Origin: a virus
Lineage: Duplodnaviria; Caudoviricetes
IMG/VR virus record: IMGVR_UViG_3300033067_001633
Coordinates: 1 to 48,583 of that record
Length of the DNA stretch: 48,583 bases
Reading direction: 5' to 3' (one strand)
This document shows, in pieces, positions 7,853 to 45,366 of this stretch. Position 1 is the first letter of the stretch; each line of letters opens with the position of its first letter. The notes under the pieces are model-generated. The model searched no databases and had not been told where the DNA came from. It saw nothing but the letters and a program-made list of their open reading frames with translations. The translations under genes were made by a program, and so were the position numbers.

Positions 7853-8518
7853 ATGAAAACATTAGGTGAAAAGATTAAGGAATTACGATTAGCGCGCAAG
7901 GAAACACAACAACAACTGGCCGTTGCAGCGCACACAACTCGATCAGCCGTAAACCAATGGGAAAGCGGAAAAACTAAACAAATGAATGGAGAATACCTGG
8001 CGCGCATTGCACATCATTACAACGTAAATGCCTTATGGCTTAGTACGGGGGAAGGGAAACAATATCCCTATCCTGAAAATACTACTTTTGAACCAACTGC
8101 AACACCCTACGATATTAAAAATAAACTCATTCCACTCATTAGCTCTGTATCTGCCGGAAAATGGTGCGATGTCATAAATTATTACTCAAGAGATGATGCA
8201 GAAGAATGGCTATCGTGCCCGAAGTCTTGCAGCCAATATACCTACGTCCTTCGAGTCGATGGCGATTCCATGACCGCCCCTTTCGGAAAATCCTACCCGC
8301 ACGGCTCGTATATTTATGTCGATCCCGAAGCGCCTATCACCAACTTATGCCGCGTAGTTGCAAAATTGCCACATGTCGAGCAAGCGATCTTTAAACAGTA
8401 CGTCGAAGACAGCGGCAAACGCTATCTGAAAGCCCTAAACCCGCAATACCCCATGATCGAAATTACCGACGACACGCGCATTTGTGGCGTAGTGATCGGC
8501 AAGTATGAGCCGGAATAA
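7853..8518 (+). CDS. cI: CI-like repressor (HTH plus S24 LexA-type peptidase)
   Basis: N-terminal HTH (AVNQWESG), SAG cleavage site, VDGDSM and FKQY motifs. Confidence 0.95.
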   Translation: MKTLGEKIKELRLARKETQQQLAVAAHTTRSAVNQWESGKTKQMNGEYLARIAHHYNVNALWLSTGEGKQYPYPENTTFEPTATPYDIKNKLIPLISSVSAGKWCDVINYYSRDDAEEWLSCPKSCSQYTYVLRVDGDSMTAPFGKSYPHGSYIYVDPEAPITNLCRVVAKLPHVEQAIFKQYVEDSGKRYLKALNPQYPMIEITDDTRICGVVIGKYEPE

Positions 8519-11339: not shown

Positions 11340-12017
11340 ATGAAACATCTCCTTCTAGCCTTAATCCCCGCTGTCGCCATTGCGCAGTTGGTAAAATTCG
11401 ACCCAGACGGCAACCCCGTCAACGACAGCGCGCCGTGGCAATGCGTGTACGACACCAAGACCCGCCTCACCTGGGAAAAAATCGACACCTTTAGTCCGGT
11501 ATCCTGGACCTACGCCAACAACGTTAATAAAGCCTTATGCAATAAAACCGGCTGGCGATTGCCCACGCGCATCGAACTGCAAAGCTTGATCCAATGTCCC
11601 AAAGGCCAGAACACTGAAGACTGGGCCAACGGCTACCCGTGCCTGGCGTACAAAGACACCCCCAGCAAAATCATCGATTCGGCTTTTTTTCCGCACATGG
11701 GCCAATCGGATTTCAACAAAAACTTTTACCGCTACTGGACTGCCGACACCTACGATGTGCTTCAAAATGCCGCGTGGTTCGTCAACTTCTCCACTGGCGC
11801 AACCGACTATAACTATAAAACGGAACTCATGGGAACAGTCTACGTTACCGACGCGCAGACTAACCCCACGCCGAAAACCAGCCTATTACCCACCTGGAAC
11901 GCCGCTGAATCCTTGCTGACCATTCCGCAATTCGCAGCGAACCAAGGTATCAAATCCGTCAAGCTCAAGCTGAATCTGCAAGACGACAGCTTTAGCATCA
12001 TCGACTACCCCTACTAA
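11340..12017 (+). CDS. Secreted DUF1566 (Lcl/C-type lectin fold) protein
   Basis: Signal peptide; CVYDTKTRLTWE, GWRLPTRIEL, YWT, AWFVNF motifs. Confidence 0.85.
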   Translation: MKHLLLALIPAVAIAQLVKFDPDGNPVNDSAPWQCVYDTKTRLTWEKIDTFSPVSWTYANNVNKALCNKTGWRLPTRIELQSLIQCPKGQNTEDWANGYPCLAYKDTPSKIIDSAFFPHMGQSDFNKNFYRYWTADTYDVLQNAAWFVNFSTGATDYNYKTELMGTVYVTDAQTNPTPKTSLLPTWNAAESLLTIPQFAANQGIKSVKLKLNLQDDSFSIIDYPY

Positions 12018-13852: not shown

Positions 13853-14458
13853 ATGAACATCAGCAAAACCAGATTCCAAGCCTACTTTTCCTACCTGCTT
13901 GCCAAAAGCGGAGGCGATAATATGGACCAGGCCGTCAAAGACACCTTCCGGGTCGCGGCCATTTTTTCCATACCTCCTAACGAGCTGGATGTAACCTTTG
14001 ACTTACCCACTGGCACAGTAGCCGGAATGGGTTACGACCCACGGCACGACAACGGCTCAGAGCACTACACCGAATCCTTAAAAAAAACCTACCACATCGG
14101 TGACATCGGCCCATCCGGCGGCATCGTTTTTTATGTCGACCCCCAAAATACCGAACACGGCCTCGAATGCGCCGCAGATGACGGCCTATTCAACGGCAAA
14201 AAATTCATCTCCTGGCATGACGCCAATACCCTTGGGAAAGACGGCTGGCGACTGCCCTTAAAGAACGAGCTAAACCTAATCTACTTAAACAAAAATATTA
14301 TTCCCAATCTCAAAAATAATACCATCGATTACAAAGGTTATTGGACAGCAGACGAATACAATGCACAAACCGCCTATTATCAATATTTCGGCAACGGCGC
14401 ACTGTCGCAACTGGTCAAAACCTACGGCGCGTCGGTTAGATTGGTTAAAGCGTTTTAA
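13853..14458 (+). CDS. DUF1566 (C-type lectin fold) protein
   Basis: YHIGDIGPSGGIVFYVD, GWRLPLKNEL, YWT, terminal VRLVKAF. Confidence 0.85.
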   Translation: MNISKTRFQAYFSYLLAKSGGDNMDQAVKDTFRVAAIFSIPPNELDVTFDLPTGTVAGMGYDPRHDNGSEHYTESLKKTYHIGDIGPSGGIVFYVDPQNTEHGLECAADDGLFNGKKFISWHDANTLGKDGWRLPLKNELNLIYLNKNIIPNLKNNTIDYKGYWTADEYNAQTAYYQYFGNGALSQLVKTYGASVRLVKAF

Positions 14459-14469
14459 TTAGGGAAAAG

Positions 14470-14509
14470 GGGTAACGCAGAGCCTAACCGGCCGAAGGTC
14501 CGGTTAGGC
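14470..14509 (-). repeat. attC site, shortened/degenerate
   Basis: GGGTAAC...GCCTAACCGG-CCGAAGGT-CCGGTTAGGC. Confidence 0.55.
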
Positions 14510-14533
14510 GCCTGGTGGATAGACGAGACAACC

Positions 14534-15031
14534 TTGGAGAGCACCATGAACGATGACAAAAAGCCTTACACGCCAACCGACGACGAAGCCGAAGCGATTG
14601 ACCGCGCGGGCTTGGTAGCTGCATGGCACGAATTGCAGCCGCTGAAAGACGATGACCTGCCAATACCGGAAAAGGTGCTGGCATGCCTGCGAGCGTTCAA
14701 GGCGGCCAGAGCGGGAGCGTATGGCGCCAGGGAAACGCTGGAAGAAGCACACCCCGAAGCGAACTTCGTCAGCTACTTCCCGGAGCCGACAGACATAGTG
14801 TGCAGCGCGGTGATGGGCTTGGACTTGGTGGATGGCCCCGACGAAATATGCGTGAGGCCTGTGCTGGGCGTGCGTTTGTCGGCGCTGTTTCAGGCTGCCA
14901 AGGTGCTGGAGGCTATGAGCACTGTGCATTCCGTGTTTGACGACGATGACGGAATCTTCGGCACCTACCTTGCGGATGAAGCCACGATGCTGGCCGAGGC
15001 TTCAATTCTTGGCAGGCCTGAAGGCGCCTAA
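14534..15031 (+). CDS. Cassette 1 hypothetical protein
   Basis: Stop codon lies inside the GCCTAAC core; probable start 14546. Confidence 0.7.
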   Translation: MESTMNDDKKPYTPTDDEAEAIDRAGLVAAWHELQPLKDDDLPIPEKVLACLRAFKAARAGAYGARETLEEAHPEANFVSYFPEPTDIVCSAVMGLDLVDGPDEICVRPVLGVRLSALFQAAKVLEAMSTVHSVFDDDDGIFGTYLADEATMLAEASILGRPEGA

Positions 15032-15109
15032 CGCATTGTTAAGGCGCGGCGGCACGTAGCCAAAAAGCACCGCGACGCTAAAGCCGTCGCTTTGAACTTA
15101 CTGTTAGGC
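15026..15109 (-). repeat. attC site (84 bp)
   Basis: Minus strand GCCTAAC-N5-GTTCAAAGCGACGGC...GCCGCGCCTTAAC-N5-GTTAGGC with two extrahelical bases. Confidence 0.88.
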
Positions 15110-15119
15110 TTGGAAAATT

Positions 15120-15446
15120 ATGGAAATACAAAGATTAAGAAACCTTACCACAGACAGGTTGCACACAGAGATTGGGCATGTGTACCAAGACCTTGAAACT
15201 ATAACTGGCGAGCGCGGGTTAATGACGCATATGCTGCCAAGGGCTTTGGAGGCTGTTCAGCCTTGGTTGCGAGAGCATATAGCCGATCCGCGCTTTTGGG
15301 ATGGTGAATACGACCCCGCGCATATGGGTGAATTTCATCTCCCGGAGCCGACGGCGGAAGATCGTGCGGCGATGTTTGAACGCTACAAAGAGCAGCCAAA
15401 CCCGCTTGATGACAAACAAGTAATGATTATTAATTGCGATGCCTAA
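15120..15446 (+). CDS. Cassette 2 conserved phage hypothetical protein
   Basis: LRNLTTDRLHT...LMTHMLPRA; stop inside attC core. Confidence 0.75.
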   Translation: MEIQRLRNLTTDRLHTEIGHVYQDLETITGERGLMTHMLPRALEAVQPWLREHIADPRFWDGEYDPAHMGEFHLPEPTAEDRAAMFERYKEQPNPLDDKQVMIINCDA

Positions 15447-15500
15447 CGCAGAGCTGTGCGGCGGGCCGTCAGGCCCGTCCGAACGAGCGCCGGGTTATGC
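15441..15500 (-). repeat. attC site (60 bp)
   Basis: GCCTAAC...GTTATGC with paired inner arms and unpaired T and G on the plus-strand right arm. Confidence 0.85.
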
Positions 15501-15526
15501 CTCGGCTCCAAAAACGGAGGAATGAC

Positions 15527-15754
15527 ATGGACCACCTAATTGACGACAGCGACCGGCTGATGCCCTGCCCTTTTTGCGGCGCGGAAGCGGAAATTATCAC
15601 GCTCGCAGGCGAGACCGACGAGCCAAGCATTGGCGCTCAATGCGTGCAATGCACGAGCAGCGCATGCGGAGCGGCCAGCGGATTGATTTACCCGCTTATG
15701 GACGACGTGACCGACCTGCTGCGCGAACGCTGGAACAAGAGGCATAACACCTGA
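15527..15754 (+). CDS. Cassette 3 Lar-family restriction-alleviation-like Zn-ribbon protein
   Basis: LMPCPFCG...C..C...WNKR; GGAGG RBS before MDHLIDD. Confidence 0.75.
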   Translation: MDHLIDDSDRLMPCPFCGAEAEIITLAGETDEPSIGAQCVQCTSSACGAASGLIYPLMDDVTDLLRERWNKRHNT

Positions 15755-15799
15755 ATTAACGGGCGCGAGTAGCGCGTCCCGTTGAATGAATTGTTATGC
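15742..15799 (-). repeat. attC site (58 bp)
   Basis: GCATAAC-N5-ATTAACGGGCGCG...CGCGtCCCGTTgAAT-N5-GTTATGC. Confidence 0.88.
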
Positions 15800-16149
15800 G
15801 TAACCCTGAGGAAAACGATATGCACATGATAGAACGCTTGCAAGCCGCGATTGCAGCAAATGAGGAAGCCGACAAGCTGGCGATGACTTGCTTGAACCTG
15901 CAATACGCACGCAGGCTGGATCAGCTCGTATGCGATGCAGATAATCTTTCCCGCGACTTTGTGCGGCGACATGGCAGAGAGATGATTGCAGAAATAACCA
16001 TACTCCTTAACACGCTGGCCGATGTTGTAGACCACGATTTTGCCTATGTTGGCGGCGAGGCAAGCACAGAAGATCCGAGAAGCCTATACAACCGAGTGCA
16101 GCGGGGGCGCGAAGTGCTGGCAGGGACGCGGCATGATTTACAAGGTTGA
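15796..16149 (+). CDS. Cassette 4 hypothetical protein A
   Basis: ORF after attC; probable start 15820 with GAGG RBS. Confidence 0.6.
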   Translation: MRNPEENDMHMIERLQAAIAANEEADKLAMTCLNLQYARRLDQLVCDADNLSRDFVRRHGREMIAEITILLNTLADVVDHDFAYVGGEASTEDPRSLYNRVQRGREVLAGTRHDLQG

Positions 16150-16519
16150 GTTTTCCGAAGGCGGTGTGTGCCACACAGGTTACAGGCCGCTTGCACTGGT
16201 ATGGGCGAAACGAAAGGGCGCAAAAATGACACAGATAGATGAAACGCGAGAGTACGAAACAGTGCGAAGGCTGCACGCGACATCGCCTGAAGGCATGGAG
16301 CTTGATGCGCTGAAAACCTCAGCCGCTATTGCGTGGGGTTGGCTGTGGCATGTGACAACTGAGGATGACCGCGTGAAAACGGCGCGGCATCTGCTTGGAC
16401 AGTTTTTGAACCGCGACATGAAGCGTTACGGCATCCAGACGGCCAAGGATGAAGGAGAACAAGTGAATGTGCAGGAAATTGAGTCCGCCATGCTGCGCGG
16501 TGAATTTGGTGACGCATAA
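16133..16519 (+). CDS. Cassette 4 hypothetical protein B
   Basis: Stop inside the terminal GCATAAC core; start 16133 or 16226. Confidence 0.6.
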   Translation: MIYKVEFSEGGVCHTGYRPLALVWAKRKGAKMTQIDETREYETVRRLHATSPEGMELDALKTSAAIAWGWLWHVTTEDDRVKTARHLLGQFLNRDMKRYGIQTAKDEGEQVNVQEIESAMLRGEFGDA

Positions 16520-16570
16520 CACCAATTAGCCATCCCAAACAACAACAGATGCTATTAAGATCAGATTAAT

Positions 16571-16837
16571 ATGACCCCATCAACCTACTTTGCATTAATG
16601 GCAGAATTCGGAAAAGCACATATTCCCATTACTGAAGTCGCTGAGAAATATTTTGGCCTTAATGACAAAGAGGCCAAACTAAAGGCGGCCAGAGCGAAAT
16701 TTCCTTTTCCGGTATTCAAATGTTCTACACAAGATGGGCAAAATAAATGCCCCTGGTTAGTCGATATTGCAGACTTAGCCAGCTATTTAGATGCACAGAA
16801 GGAAAAGTCAAAAAAGGAATTTAACGCGGCGCATTAA
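16571..16837 (+). CDS. Pyocin activator PrtN-family protein (probable recombination directionality factor)
   Basis: TYFALMAEFG...IPITEVAEKYFGL...WLVDIADLASYLD; adjacent to att and integrase. Confidence 0.85.
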   Translation: MTPSTYFALMAEFGKAHIPITEVAEKYFGLNDKEAKLKAARAKFPFPVFKCSTQDGQNKCPWLVDIADLASYLDAQKEKSKKEFNAAH

Positions 16838-16973: not shown

Positions 16974-17063
16974 GTATTTATTAGTAAGTTATTAATGCGT
17001 ATTTATTGCTATTTTTTATGATTACATGCACCATAAATGCCCCGTCATTTTCACGGCGCATTT

Positions 17064-18149
17064 ATGAAACCGACAAAAATCAAAAATAAAGATGGATCGT
17101 TCTCTTATAGAATCTATGTTAGCGTAACCATTGATGGTAAACAAATCAGAGAAAATAAGCGCTTTTCAACGCGGCAACTCGCTATTGATTGGGCGCAAAA
17201 ACGCCAAGCAGAAATTGAACATGAAAGCATTCATGGAAAAAAAAGTACACAGACGATTAAAAGCGTGATAACGGACTATATGGAAAAATTTTCCAGCAAT
17301 TATGGACGATCTAAAAATTATGACTTAGCCAGATTGCTGAATTATCCGATTGCGGAAATGTCAATTGATAAATTGTCCGTAAAAGCCATCATTGCCCATT
17401 GTATCGAGCGCAACAAAGAAGCGAAACCGCAAACTGTGCAAAATGACGTGATCTGGCTAAGAACTGTGCTGAGAACAATGAGCGCCGTGAATGGGTTTCA
17501 TTTTGACGGCTCGGTGTTTGATTCGGCGATGGTGGTTTTGCGGCAGGAAAAACTGGTCGCACGCTCCACAGAGCGCAAGCGACTGCCCACGTTCATCGAA
17601 ATGCTCAAGATTTCGCGTTATTACAAGCATAAACGAGGCAAAATACCTATGTATGATTTGGTTTGGTTCGCGTACTTTTCCGCGCGTCGATTATCCGAAA
17701 TTACCCGACTGGAATGGCGAGACAATAATGACGAACGCATGACCGGCATGGTGCGCGATGCGAAACACCCACGCGAAAAAACGGGTAATCATAAACGTTT
17801 TAAGTATGACAAACGCGCCTGGCGAATCGTTCAGCAACAACCTAAGATGAAATCTTTAATATTCCCTTACAACGCTCAATCGATTGGCACTAATTTTGAA
17901 CGCATGTGTAAGCTGTTAGGTATTGTCGATTTGCATTTTCATGACCTGAGACATGCCGCCACTAGTCGACTATTTAGACTGGGGTACAACATTTTAGTCA
18001 CTGTCGAGCAAAGCCACGCGCTCATCCAGGCGCTAGATCCCGATTGCGCCGTAATGGATGAGGCCAAATGGGTGCTGTACATGACCCAAGAGCGCGGCTA
18101 TGTGGTGATCAAAAAAGCGGATTTGCTGAAAAAATTGCAGGATTTGTAA
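17064..18149 (+). CDS. int: Tyrosine integrase (DusA-associated type) lacking its catalytic C-terminus; foreign tail after 17993
   Basis: KDGSFSY N-terminus, SARRLSEI, KHP, FHDLRHAATSRLF; no H...RYTH in this ORF. Confidence 0.88.
   Translation: MKPTKIKNKDGSFSYRIYVSVTIDGKQIRENKRFSTRQLAIDWAQKRQAEIEHESIHGKKSTQTIKSVITDYMEKFSSNYGRSKNYDLARLLNYPIAEMSIDKLSVKAIIAHCIERNKEAKPQTVQNDVIWLRTVLRTMSAVNGFHFDGSVFDSAMVVLRQEKLVARSTERKRLPTFIEMLKISRYYKHKRGKIPMYDLVWFAYFSARRLSEITRLEWRDNNDERMTGMVRDAKHPREKTGNHKRFKYDKRAWRIVQQQPKMKSLIFPYNAQSIGTNFERMCKLLGIVDLHFHDLRHAATSRLFRLGYNILVTVEQSHALIQALDPDCAVMDEAKWVLYMTQERGYVVIKKADLLKKLQDL
17974..17993 (+). repeat. 20-bp inverted repeat, left copy (TTAGACTGGGGTACAACATT)
   Basis: Perfect reverse complement at 41997-42016. 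Confidence 0.95.
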
Positions 18150-41912: not shown

Positions 41913-42016
41913 TTAATCAATATCTTCCGGTTTCAAATGCGTATAGCGTGCCAGCGTTTTCCAATCATCATGCAAAGTAAATTGTTGTACTTGTTCAATG
42001 TTGTACCCCAGTCTAA
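41913..42016 (-). pseudogene. Detached catalytic C-terminus of the integrase
   Basis: RLGYNIEQVQQFTLHDDWKTLARYTHLKPEDID*; continues exactly from RLGYNI of the 17064 ORF. Confidence 0.92.
41997..42016 (-). repeat. 20-bp inverted repeat, right copy
   Basis: AATGTTGTACCCCAGTCTAA is the reverse complement of 17974-17993. Confidence 0.95.
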
Positions 42017-42526: not shown

Positions 42527-43056
42527 GTACCCAATGTCCAGGTTTTAATAGTTTTGATTAAGTCATGCGGCTGATGTTGCATCCATACATTAAATTGCGC
42601 TGTCCCAGACGATAGATTAAACAGTTGCTCTTGTACCGCACTCAAAAAAGTAAGTGTCAACTCATTCGGCATCGTTAATGCCCGCAAGCCGCGCACAATA
42701 TGCTGGTCGTCAATGGCATGCAATTCAATGACTAGGCGCTGTTCACTATTGTCGATGTCGTATAGCTGTCTATCGTCAGCCGGTATAATGCGCACGTCGA
42801 ACGGTGCGTCCAACGTCAATAATGGTCCTTTGTCGCCGTAGAATTGAAACAACCATAGCAATGCGCCAGAACGGTACAAAAATCCCGCTTTTACTATGCC
42901 GTACCGTAACGCTTTTTCTTCTTTGTTCGACATGTTGGGTAAAATCACTTGCAGGATATTGCCGCCTTTGCGCAAGAATTCCACCCGAGCGCCTTCGGTG
43001 GTATCGCCGGTTAAGAGTGGGTAGGATTGTCCACGGACTAATGTGATACCGTTCAT
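42523..43056 (-). CDS. Hypothetical protein
   Basis: 177-aa ORF coupled to both neighbours. Confidence 0.7.
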   Translation of the reverse strand: MNGITLVRGQSYPLLTGDTTEGARVEFLRKGGNILQVILPNMSNKEEKALRYGIVKAGFLYRSGALLWLFQFYGDKGPLLTLDAPFDVRIIPADDRQLYDIDNSEQRLVIELHAIDDQHIVRGLRALTMPNELTLTFLSAVQEQLFNLSSGTAQFNVWMQHQPHDLIKTIKTWTLGT

Positions 43057-43580
43057 TGATAAAACTCCACGTCATTAACGCTTTTAACCCACGCTTTGGA
43101 AAAATCATTGTTGGCAAATAACGCTGCCAAGCCGCTAATTTGCTTTAAGCGCAATATTTCATCCGCATCCATACCGATATTCTTACAAATCCATTCGTCC
43201 GACATGCCAGAATCCACTAATTCAGCGACAATATTCACCATCAAATCAATGGAATGACTTCCACGCGCTCGGTTATGTCGAATCGTTGAAGCCATGCGAT
43301 TGCTGATGTCTTTTTCGATGGTAACGACCGGCATCATGCTGCCTTCGCGCTCGCGAATATCTTTGCAGGTCATCATGACGGTATAGCGATGAAAGCCGTC
43401 GACAATTTCATACATGTCGTCATTCGGCAGGTAATAACAGACTATTGGCATGGTATAACCGTCCTCGCGAATGGATTTCTCTAACAAGCGCATTTCAGGC
43501 GGCGCTACGGCGTTCGGGTTATAGTTATTTGCGCGAATTTTTTCGAGCGGCACGGCTTTAACGTTATATACCGGACTCAT
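43053..43580 (-). CDS. ParB/Srx-like nuclease domain protein (IbrB/YbdM-like)
   Basis: ANNYNPNAVAPPEM, IVDGFHR, MASTIRHNRARG. Confidence 0.9.
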   Translation of the reverse strand: MSPVYNVKAVPLEKIRANNYNPNAVAPPEMRLLEKSIREDGYTMPIVCYYLPNDDMYEIVDGFHRYTVMMTCKDIREREGSMMPVVTIEKDISNRMASTIRHNRARGSHSIDLMVNIVAELVDSGMSDEWICKNIGMDADEILRLKQISGLAALFANNDFSKAWVKSVNDVEFYQ

Positions 43581-43999
43581 AATTTTTTCTCCCAGCGGAC
43601 AAACGTGCCGCGTTTCTTTTCGCCCGGCACAAAATTAAATAATTTCCAAAAACCGTTATTTTCACGATCATTGGTAAAGACCAAGAGCGATTCGGCTTTT
43701 ATGGCATCATCAATGACCCAGGTTAACAGCTCGTTTTTTATCGTTGTTTCCATTGCTTCGGCATACAGCAGACGCACATGGCACTGGTTATCTTTGGTAT
43801 AGCGGACATTACAAAAGCCGTAAGGGTTATCGCGCAAATCAAACCAAAAATACCACGCATCGCCATCATTCCCCGTAACGGCAACGCCTAATTCGTTATG
43901 CACTTTGGCGCTAATGGCAAATTTACCGATCAGGCAATACATTTTCTTGTCGGTTTTATTTGCGCCCTGGATGTATTTGACTAATTTACCACTGCTCAT
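43577..43999 (-). CDS. Divergent GNAT-fold protein (putative acetyltransferase)
   Basis: GFCNVR...HVRLLYA...FWKLFNF pattern; inference from size and motif order. Confidence 0.5.
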   Translation of the reverse strand: MSSGKLVKYIQGANKTDKKMYCLIGKFAISAKVHNELGVAVTGNDGDAWYFWFDLRDNPYGFCNVRYTKDNQCHVRLLYAEAMETTIKNELLTWVIDDAIKAESLLVFTNDRENNGFWKLFNFVPGEKKRGTFVRWEKKL

Positions 44000-45366
44000 A
44001 AATTTTTATATTTATCAATGGCCGCTTTGCGGCGTTGCATGTCTAGCTTGGTCAATCCAAACCCCATATATTTGCAGGCGTAGTCGTTTTTTAAAATGCA
44101 AATACACATCCGTTTGTAGCTGGGTACTAATTTAAAATCATCAATCGGCAAATCATCGGGATAATCGGTAAATTTAACCAGCTCCATTTCACCGGTATAG
44201 GTGACATTGCGCGTCGGTTTACCCAAATACTCCGCTGGAGCATCGATAGCACGCAGTTCATCCACGGTTTCTTTAGGCAATGCGCCGCCTTTTTCAAGCC
44301 AATACTTTAAGCTGCTGTTGAATTTTTCCAGGTATTTTTCACGGGTATTTTCCGGCAGCGTTTCCAGCAAAAAATCTAAGTAACTTTTCCAGGTATGGCC
44401 TTTAGGCAGGCTGATATTTTTGAACGCCATTGCTTTGGTAGCGCCGTAGATAGCCGTGAAATTAGCGCCATTAACACGTCCCAACACGCGACCCCAGGTT
44501 TGGGGCTCAATGATTCGGTATAGGTTCAATGATTCTTGTGCTGCGCCTAAAAACGGGCTGGCCACGCGCATATCGTGCGGCTTGATCCCCGCGTAATACA
44601 TCAAATCGTAGAGTTTGTTGTAGTCAAAGCCAAATTTAGCGTTTGCGGTCCAAATATCATCAACTGTCCAATCATACAAAGGATAGGCTAAACAGGCATT
44701 TTTACCGGATTGGGTGGTCCAAATATGACCATTCCAGCTTTTTTGTTTATGCATGATAGCGGCATAACGGCTTAAGCTTTCTTGCGTGCGAATACCAACT
44801 AGAGCGCAACACTTACCGCCGCCGTGCTGTTTTTGATACCAGCCTTGGAACTTATCTTGCAAAGTGTAATCCACCATACCTTGCTGATAAAAATCAAAGC
44901 AGTGATTATCTATGTTAATCACGCCCTTATGTTCCGGCAAATCCCGTACCCAGATGCTTTTTTCATCCGGGTTCCAGGGTATCCAGGCAGACTGATGCAT
45001 GGAGGTTGTACACGGGACGGACATCGGCAGACAGATCCAAAACGGCTCTATTAAATCCGGGTTACTGGTCATAACCTGCGTGACATAATCCGTAGTTGCC
45101 GTATATTGCGCCTCGTAGTCCATGTGCATGACGCCAATTTTTTGCGTAATGTCGTGATTACGCATGTATTGCAACGTCAGTTCAAGCAATACGCCGGAAT
45201 CTTTTCCGCCAGAGAATGACACGTAAATATGGTCAAATTCGTTAAAAACGTACTCCAAGCGCTTTTGCAGCGATTGGTAGACGTTGGGTTTGATATAGAT
45301 TTTTAAATCTGACATGTGCTTTTGGCGTAATTGAACGCAACTGCGGGTAATTTGATATTTTGCCAT
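43996..45366 (-). CDS. PAPS-reductase/PP-loop protein with DUF3440 (IbrA/YbdN-like)
   Basis: VSFSGGKDS, LVGIRTQESLSR, YPLYDW, SYKRMCICILKND. Confidence 0.92.
   Translation of the reverse strand: MAKYQITRSCVQLRQKHMSDLKIYIKPNVYQSLQKRLEYVFNEFDHIYVSFSGGKDSGVLLELTLQYMRNHDITQKIGVMHMDYEAQYTATTDYVTQVMTSNPDLIEPFWICLPMSVPCTTSMHQSAWIPWNPDEKSIWVRDLPEHKGVINIDNHCFDFYQQGMVDYTLQDKFQGWYQKQHGGGKCCALVGIRTQESLSRYAAIMHKQKSWNGHIWTTQSGKNACLAYPLYDWTVDDIWTANAKFGFDYNKLYDLMYYAGIKPHDMRVASPFLGAAQESLNLYRIIEPQTWGRVLGRVNGANFTAIYGATKAMAFKNISLPKGHTWKSYLDFLLETLPENTREKYLEKFNSSLKYWLEKGGALPKETVDELRAIDAPAEYLGKPTRNVTYTGEMELVKFTDYPDDLPIDDFKLVPSYKRMCICILKNDYACKYMGFGLTKLDMQRRKAAIDKYKNL

Follow-up and report, generated by a model that had tools for sequence, protein, structure and literature searches.

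Reversed-polarity integron cassettes, probably rearranged by an integron integrase in trans, in a temperate phage's early region

Integrons are seen as bacterial devices, in which the strand selectivity of recombination aligns the cassette genes with the promoter Pc. The locus studied here raises the question of what a row of attC-like sites does in the early region of a phage, where every gene of the array lies on the opposite strand. The window that we analyzed was a whole virus record of 48,583 bp, whose completeness was estimated by CheckV at 74%. The phage is of the lambdoid temperate type. Its replication genes are in leftward orientation, and small genes together with an exonuclease gene form a plus-strand run that closes with xis (16571) and int (17037). 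The array forms the distal end of this plus-strand early run, which is framed by the following genes.

7853..8518, plus strand: cI-like repressor (phrog_4), which marks plus as the early-left direction, array included
16571..16837, plus strand: excisionase (phrog_1300), immediately 3′ of the array
17037..17993, plus strand: integrase of the phage (not IntI), first 319 aa; the C-terminus is at 42044-41916 on the minus strand, due to a 24-kb inversion

A profile comparison placed the phage integrase outside the IntI family. Its nearest named relatives were from Methylovulum (Methylovulum miyakonense) and Methylobacter, with 58-60% identity, so the host is likely a methanotroph. Chromosomal attC arrays are reported in Methylococcales (PMC8352920). 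A search of the integrase in 401 genomes at E 1e-70 returned zero matches. The sequencing runs that contained the phage were mostly from sludge, river and aquatic metagenomes, and RNA runs matched at most 0.16 of the words. The GC content was 50-62% in the cassettes and 40-44% in the flanks. A promoter scan found 11 sites against 14.1 expected, which is chance level, and zero of them were inside the array; plus-strand terminator-like sites were not found between 10.7 and 17.1 kb. An array empty of both would fit read-through from upstream, given a promoter scan at chance level.

Some other features of the genome were also observed. Two proteins with an Lcl C-terminal domain are encoded in the early region (11340-12017 and 13853-14458), one of which seems to have a signal peptide. 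The terminase is followed by two genes, one PAPS-reductase-like and one ParB-like (43053-45366). The 24-kb inversion is bounded by a 20-bp exact inverted repeat (17974-17993 and 41997-42016), the sole inverted repeat of at least 16 bp in the contig; it cut the integrase gene at codon 319 and flipped the structural genes relative to the terminase. The integrase is uninterrupted by the inversion in L001, a contig from a near relative, and in runs X2, X3 and X8, and the inverted junction is bridged by an 8.1-kb contig of run X1. The inversion may be a real switch, an inactivating inversion or an artefact of the X1 sample. Some relatives (L001, 678-1050; run X8) have an insertion of ~1.5 kb within the integrase gene (17855-17860, 6-bp overlap), and L001 has lost the DNA from xis up to this insert. 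Relatives with the insertion may be defective prophages.

The first-pass annotation had described four attC-like sites in the array, the leftmost of them shortened. We scored both strands with a covariance model trained on nine canonical bacterial attC sites (eight class 1 and one chromosomal), for which E-values are rough. Three of the four sites stood as intact attC, and the fourth proved to be collapsed. Together with the end of the array, the sites are as follows.

14470..14509, no polarity: collapsed attC at the left array end, with core, spacer and 28-bp hairpin; the L″ arm and the unpaired bases are lost
15026..15109, top strand minus: attC of cassette B, 84 bp (36.8 bits minus, 15.2 plus)
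15441..15500, top strand minus: attC of cassette C, 60 bp (29.0 bits minus, 10.1 plus)
15742..15799, top strand minus: attC of cassette D, 58 bp (50.7 bits minus, 11.0 plus)
16514..16550 (core 16514-16520), minus strand: terminal core without hairpin, an attG-/attI-like insertion site, variable for C+D

A strict scan of the whole 48.6-kb contig gave these three minus-strand matches at the same coordinates and zero plus-strand matches. The three sites have complementary R″/R′ cores with the conserved AAC/GTT, L″/L′ boxes, a 5-6 nt unpaired spacer, and an extrahelical G and T six pairs apart. In the alignments both unpaired bases (C16 and A23 of the top strand, thus G and T of the plus strand) were present in all three. 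According to passages of Nivina et al. 2016 (PMC5027507), the attC strand with the extrahelical G and T is the recombinogenic bottom strand. Since they fall on the plus strand here, the plus strand is the attC sites' bottom strand. On its minus strand, the site at 15742-15799 shares 80% identity with the aac(6′)-IIa attC (class 1), whose gene sits upstream on the same strand. The collapsed site scored 15.7 bits on each strand with only its outer cores aligned, and it had neither the L″/L′ boxes nor the extrahelical bases.

The published TJE1 array, used as a control of the model, was called canonical. A second scanner detected two of the three sites; after shuffling of the region (1000 times) or of the whole window (60 times), it gave a single match in 4 and 3 cases, respectively, and never two matches. 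This scanner correctly called 11 of 12 canonical sites in a control. In its stricter form it missed the 84-bp site, and relaxed thresholds mis-called the strand of the dfrA17 attC; the covariance model was used instead. An Rfam search of the array gave no match. Unconstrained folding of the 84-bp site did not produce the attC fold (z about -0.4 to -0.6), and fold energy alone was therefore not used. Judged by sequence, the three intact sites are real attC, and their recombination by IntI is predicted.

With three attC sites within 800 bp and no intI nearby, the array falls within the definition of a CALIN. A search for IntI across the contig (48,583 bp, 74% complete by CheckV) found none, in agreement with the first-pass annotation, and by lack of an intI gene it is not a complete integron. 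The terminal core is a variable junction, yet it had no clear likeness to attI1 and two other attI sites. No shared motif emerged among the candidate array ends. At the other end, the collapsed site probably fixes cassette A in place. Collapsed sites of this type (14470-14509, L034 at about 3550 and L035 at about 590, L034 and L035 being two other phage contigs) seemingly came from a deletion between two internal GTT triplets, a possible route for fixing a cassette.

The sites divide the array into four cassettes, given here from crossover to crossover.

14476..15031, plus strand: cassette A; ORF 14546-15031, 161 aa, no family, with the TAA of the next core as its stop
15032..15446, plus strand: cassette B; ORF 15120-15446, 108 aa, DUF7736
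15447..15747, plus strand: cassette C; ORF 15527-15754, 75 aa, Lar-like zinc-finger protein
15748..16519, plus strand: cassette D; ORFs 15820-16149 (109 aa, D1) and 16226-16519 (97 aa, D2), no family

Complementary cassette ends, as had been described, were present in the sequence for all four pairs, with perfect runs of 11, 7, 10 and 9 bp. Each unit begins with an attC, followed by a ribosome-binding site, a gene and a core whose TAA is the usual stop. The first gene of each of the four cassettes starts 17-43 bases past the inner core, the TAA of the next core serves as the stop codon in three cassettes, and a recognisable ribosome-binding site was found at most of the five ORFs (the start of D2 was corrected to 16226). 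The plus strand, which is the attC bottom strand, carries all five ORFs, and the canonical layout with the gene on the top strand upstream of attC was not found. The polarity proposed in the first-pass annotation was thus borne out (29-51 bits on minus versus 10-15 on plus, with five plus-strand ORFs).

The five genes comprise one Lar-like gene, one with a domain of unknown function (DUF7736) and three without a family. The Lar-like protein scored 35.5 bits against PF14354 (Pfam cut-off 28.6), and 32.2 bits against the NCBIfam profile, below its cut-off of 39.6. The Lar restriction-alleviation protein of the Rac prophage, described in passages of PMC3177214, belongs to a family of short zinc fingers; cassette C shares PF14354 with it, above the Pfam cut-off only. 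Within its own cassette the Lar-like gene meets no stop codon; it reads through the core at 15742-15754, taking its last residues from the next cassette, so its C-terminus would vary with the neighbouring cassette. The cluster members listed for it have 75 to 88 aa. We found 32 homologues of the cassette A protein and 23 unnamed relatives of D1. In atlas searches with the cargo of A and D2 the scores were all below 0.9. A PADLOC defence match of D1 (E 0.004) was weak and was discounted. The single Lar-like gene may point to an anti-defence function of the cargo.

We then compared the array with its near relatives. In L001, cassette B (99.8% identical to the window) was joined directly to the flank (99.2% identical) at the shared TAAC. 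It lacked 15447-16519, that is, cassettes C and D (1073 bp). The same 1073-bp skip, with its joint from 15443 to 16517 and 4 ambiguous letters, was seen in seven of the eight runs compared (seven studies); the commonest allele is the shorter one without C+D. The eighth run, X1, matched the window and may be its source sample. Run X8 had one 8.8-kb contig with about 1.1 kb of extra DNA between A and B; a loose end just past cassette A, matching that of X8, was found in X2, X3, X5 and X14, and X4 contained both the A-B and the A-other arrangements. The ~1.1 kb of extra DNA was looked for in viral contigs, with no match. Besides the skipped form, X2 also had a C-D contig without differences from the window. 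Cassette B and its upstream attC stayed together in L001 and in the runs. Joints going back, as from a circular intermediate, were not listed, which is uninformative either way in data consisting of contigs only.

The exchange by whole cassettes expected in the first-pass annotation was seen in populations, and not the invariant content that would have spoken against it: cassette content varies among relatives, with C+D present or absent exactly at the core crossover, and with extra DNA between A and B in X8. In the C+D event, the terminal core without a hairpin took part as one of the partners and thus behaves as an insertion site. A chimeric assembly of the C+D stretch could be suspected, considering that X1 may be the source sample of the window; it is unlikely, as the junction from D to the flank was also found in contigs of two runs, although these contigs run on for only 21 and 26 letters beyond it, short of our 31-letter rule. 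The array is apparently mobile: units were gained or lost exactly at the cores, the direction not being told by the relatives.

Cassettes A, B, C and D were each found in other phage contigs beside other neighbours. Bodies of cassette A were 87-90% identical in L011 and L012, with intact attC. Cassette C was common to many phage contigs. Among the 18 loci examined with cassette C, the upstream attC was closer to that of the window than the downstream attC was in nine of the ten measurable carriers, as predicted by a model of reversed cassettes. The attC does not always travel intact, as the upstream attC had diverged in L013 and L016. The body of cassette D was 99.3% identical in L034 and L035, but the site there was different and collapsed. 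The cassettes are a pool shared among phages.

The reversed polarity was also seen beyond the window. The model matched 109 times in 47 related loci; 105 of these matches were on the minus strand, and the four plus-strand rows were mirror reads of stronger minus-strand sites. Sites were present in 30 of the 47 loci, some of which are near-duplicates; being found via the window's own cargo, these loci do not sample phage arrays without bias. At 88 phage-like sites, a ribosome-binding site and an ORF followed the site on the plus strand in 62 cases and on the minus strand in five. A cruder and weaker test with the longest ORF in 61 intervals gave 41 plus, 18 minus and two ties. The ribosome-binding-site test on seven native chromosomal sites showed nothing on either strand. 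Among GenBank phages we found no close relative of the array, only two records with one gene. The contig of L001 was the sole match in a search with the terminal site, and a metagenome scan with xis gave no close relative. In MW202573.1 (2069-2703), an array published by Qi et al. 2023, the model and the GenBank annotation indicated reversed polarity. The model gave no match on PH101, P12002L, H188 and 3/49, four of five further published arrays.

Which enzyme would act on these sites? A gene for IntI was found in one of the 41 viral records checked, most of which are fragments. It belongs to G002 (locus L013), a temperate phage of 35.9 kb that is rated complete and carries cassette C. Its full IntI (453 bits) is encoded at G002:C1:2965-4068 in the early operon. 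The order in G002 is cassettes, terminal site, intI, a xis-like gene and int, all on the plus strand, with attC on minus. Relative to attC, the orientation of intI in G002 is thus regular, and the inversion concerns the genes alone. An inverted integrase, with intI on the attC strand, was found neither in the contig, which is without intI, nor in G002, whose intI is on plus and attC on minus. The candidate attI of G002 contains a short palindrome. The GenBank virus Rctr41k (KX853513.1, 4680-5678; L090) has an IntI-family protein (383 bits) that is annotated as xerD; the attC model had no match in the 11.6 kb around this gene.

On the host side, IntI was encoded in four of the five metagenome-assembled genomes with cassette C homologues, although several of these contigs are short and possibly mis-binned. 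One chromosomal integron was on a 737-kb contig, with intI at G042:C4:26854 and native sites of 126-135 bp. Seven of its Pfam-supported ORFs are on the canonical strand and four on the opposite strand, namely a VapBC pair, a Lar-like gene (49% identical to C) and a DNA methylase. The Lar-like and methylase cassettes sit behind shorter sites of the phage type. The two phage-type reversed cassettes, with the Lar-like gene and an N6/N4 methylase, lie at L068 9899-11444 within a betaproteobacterial chromosomal integron. This one example points to handling of reversed cassettes by host IntI and to exchange between the host and phage pools. A host IntI may be the source of the enzyme, as proposed in the first-pass annotation; the IntI of a co-infecting phage is also a possible source, because one phage with cassette C, G002, has its own IntI.

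We consider it likely that this temperate phage, which has no intI, carries four integron cassettes of reversed polarity in its early region, and that they are rearranged by an IntI acting in trans, from the host or from another phage. The array is a real and apparently active phage CALIN of reversed polarity, for which the evidence from populations is unusually direct. From the established mechanism, IntI supplied in trans would fold and cut the plus-strand hairpin as for any attC. Circles would be inserted between cassettes or at the terminal core at 16520, which acts as attI/attG insertion sites do. Lacking promoters of their own, the genes would depend on the early-left transcript, shared with xis and int, and a collapsed site would fix its cassette. 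How the polarity arose is a matter of speculation. Phages may have put intI inside the early operon, which would set attI and attC against transcription, so that only cassettes with inverted genes would be expressed; this scenario is drawn from one phage (L013). The polarity might, equally speculatively, keep each side's cassettes from being expressed on the other, those of the host in the phage and those of the phage in the host.

Could the array move without IntI? Units might be exchanged by homologous or microhomology recombination between hairpins, by phage recombinases or by the phage's own integrase, and the absence of intI from the contig and from 40 of the 41 related viral records would agree with this. 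However, the deletion junction shares only 4 letters and sits on the IntI core, with one partner that has no hairpin. All three intact sites retain the unpaired bases that IntI reads, and the phage's own integrase falls outside the IntI family. We regard this explanation as improbable. The array might also be the decaying fragment of a bacterial integron, captured once and now just losing pieces. The left site is indeed collapsed, as are sites in L034 and L035, and the commonest allele is the shorter one. Decay alone, however, does not account for the additional DNA that relatives have between A and B, or for the separate occurrence of the four cassettes in other phages with different neighbours; moreover, the native cassettes of the chromosomal integron that we examined mostly have the canonical direction. 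We think this history very unlikely.

It could further be argued that the hairpins are kept mainly as RNA elements, for processing or termination between early genes, and that mobility is incidental. The folded bottom strand is the mRNA strand, and a terminator-like stem is present within site B on the minus strand. In contrast, it is the DNA crossover core at which the junctions lie, the sequence and structure of the sites agree with class 1 attC, and the stretch of 10.7-17.1 kb is devoid of plus-strand terminator-like sites. A primary role in RNA therefore seems most improbable, and the recombination of reversed cassettes by IntI in trans is the explanation that we prefer.

Phage CALINs have already been published. 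Qi, Rajabal, Ghaly, Tetu and Gillings 2023 (PMC9892861) reported 17 of them, and IntI1 recombined five of six phage attC sites. Like the array here, these are attC clusters without intI and with small accessory cargo; in the portions of the article available, unlike here, cassette gain or loss among relatives was not shown. The words 'reverse' and 'opposite' occur 0 times in its main text, a count that covers neither the figures nor the Dryad annotation file, where arrows may show the orientation. Of the arrays from that study scored by our model, TJE1 is canonical and MW202573 is reversed like the present one. Compared with class 1 cassettes as described in parts of PMC5027507, the architecture is alike, with the order R″-L″-VTS-L′-R′, the bottom-strand G and T six pairs apart, a length of 58-84 bp and a crossover in the core. 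The differences are that the gene here is on the bottom strand, that attC precedes the gene, and that Pc, intI and a recognisable attI were not found; a phage promoter located at the array's far end would drive expression here.

Passages of Loot et al. (bioRxiv 10.1101/2022.09.11.507474) describe the insertion of cassettes by IntI at non-att genomic GWT cores, termed attG. The terminal core of the array agrees with the GWT description in that work on attG, SALIN and CALIN. Those passages concern bacterial chromosomes, and 'prophage' appears 0 times in the main text, whereas here one site was apparently reused to build an array. In the parts of PMC4909258 and PMC13323075 that deal with it, the term 'reverse integron' means an inverted intI. 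The 'reverse' integrons of Treponema described there resemble G002 in that intI and the cassette genes have the same direction. In Treponema, however, intI is inverted relative to attC, whereas in G002 the genes are inverted and intI is regular, and the window is without intI. Passages of a review (PMC8618304) contained nothing on orientation. Descriptions of reversed phage cassettes were not found in the titles and abstract openings searched, a search that lies outside most of the subscription literature. Within the literature covered, reversed polarity in phage CALINs thus seems to be undescribed.

A broader reading, which we hold to be about evenly balanced, is that temperate phages run an integron system of their own. 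A pool of cassettes with mirror polarity would be spread across unrelated phages, with IntI supplied by a minority of phages or by the host; the polarity would act as a one-way filter, and host integrons would serve as a store. If this is true, host cassettes, including anti-phage ones, would be silent in a phage array, and cassettes would be made de novo from phage early genes. The question of cassette origin becomes testable, because the cargo is phage-type and some homologues have no detected attC. Phage G002 would be a good experimental model. For annotation, the assumption of gene followed by attC would pair each site with the wrong gene. The attC sites here appear to build arrays of accessory genes in phage early operons, with the polarity opposite to that of bacterial integrons, and populations show gain or loss at the crossover. 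This would offer a defined mechanism for part of the mosaicism of phage genomes and connect the cassette pools of phages and their hosts.
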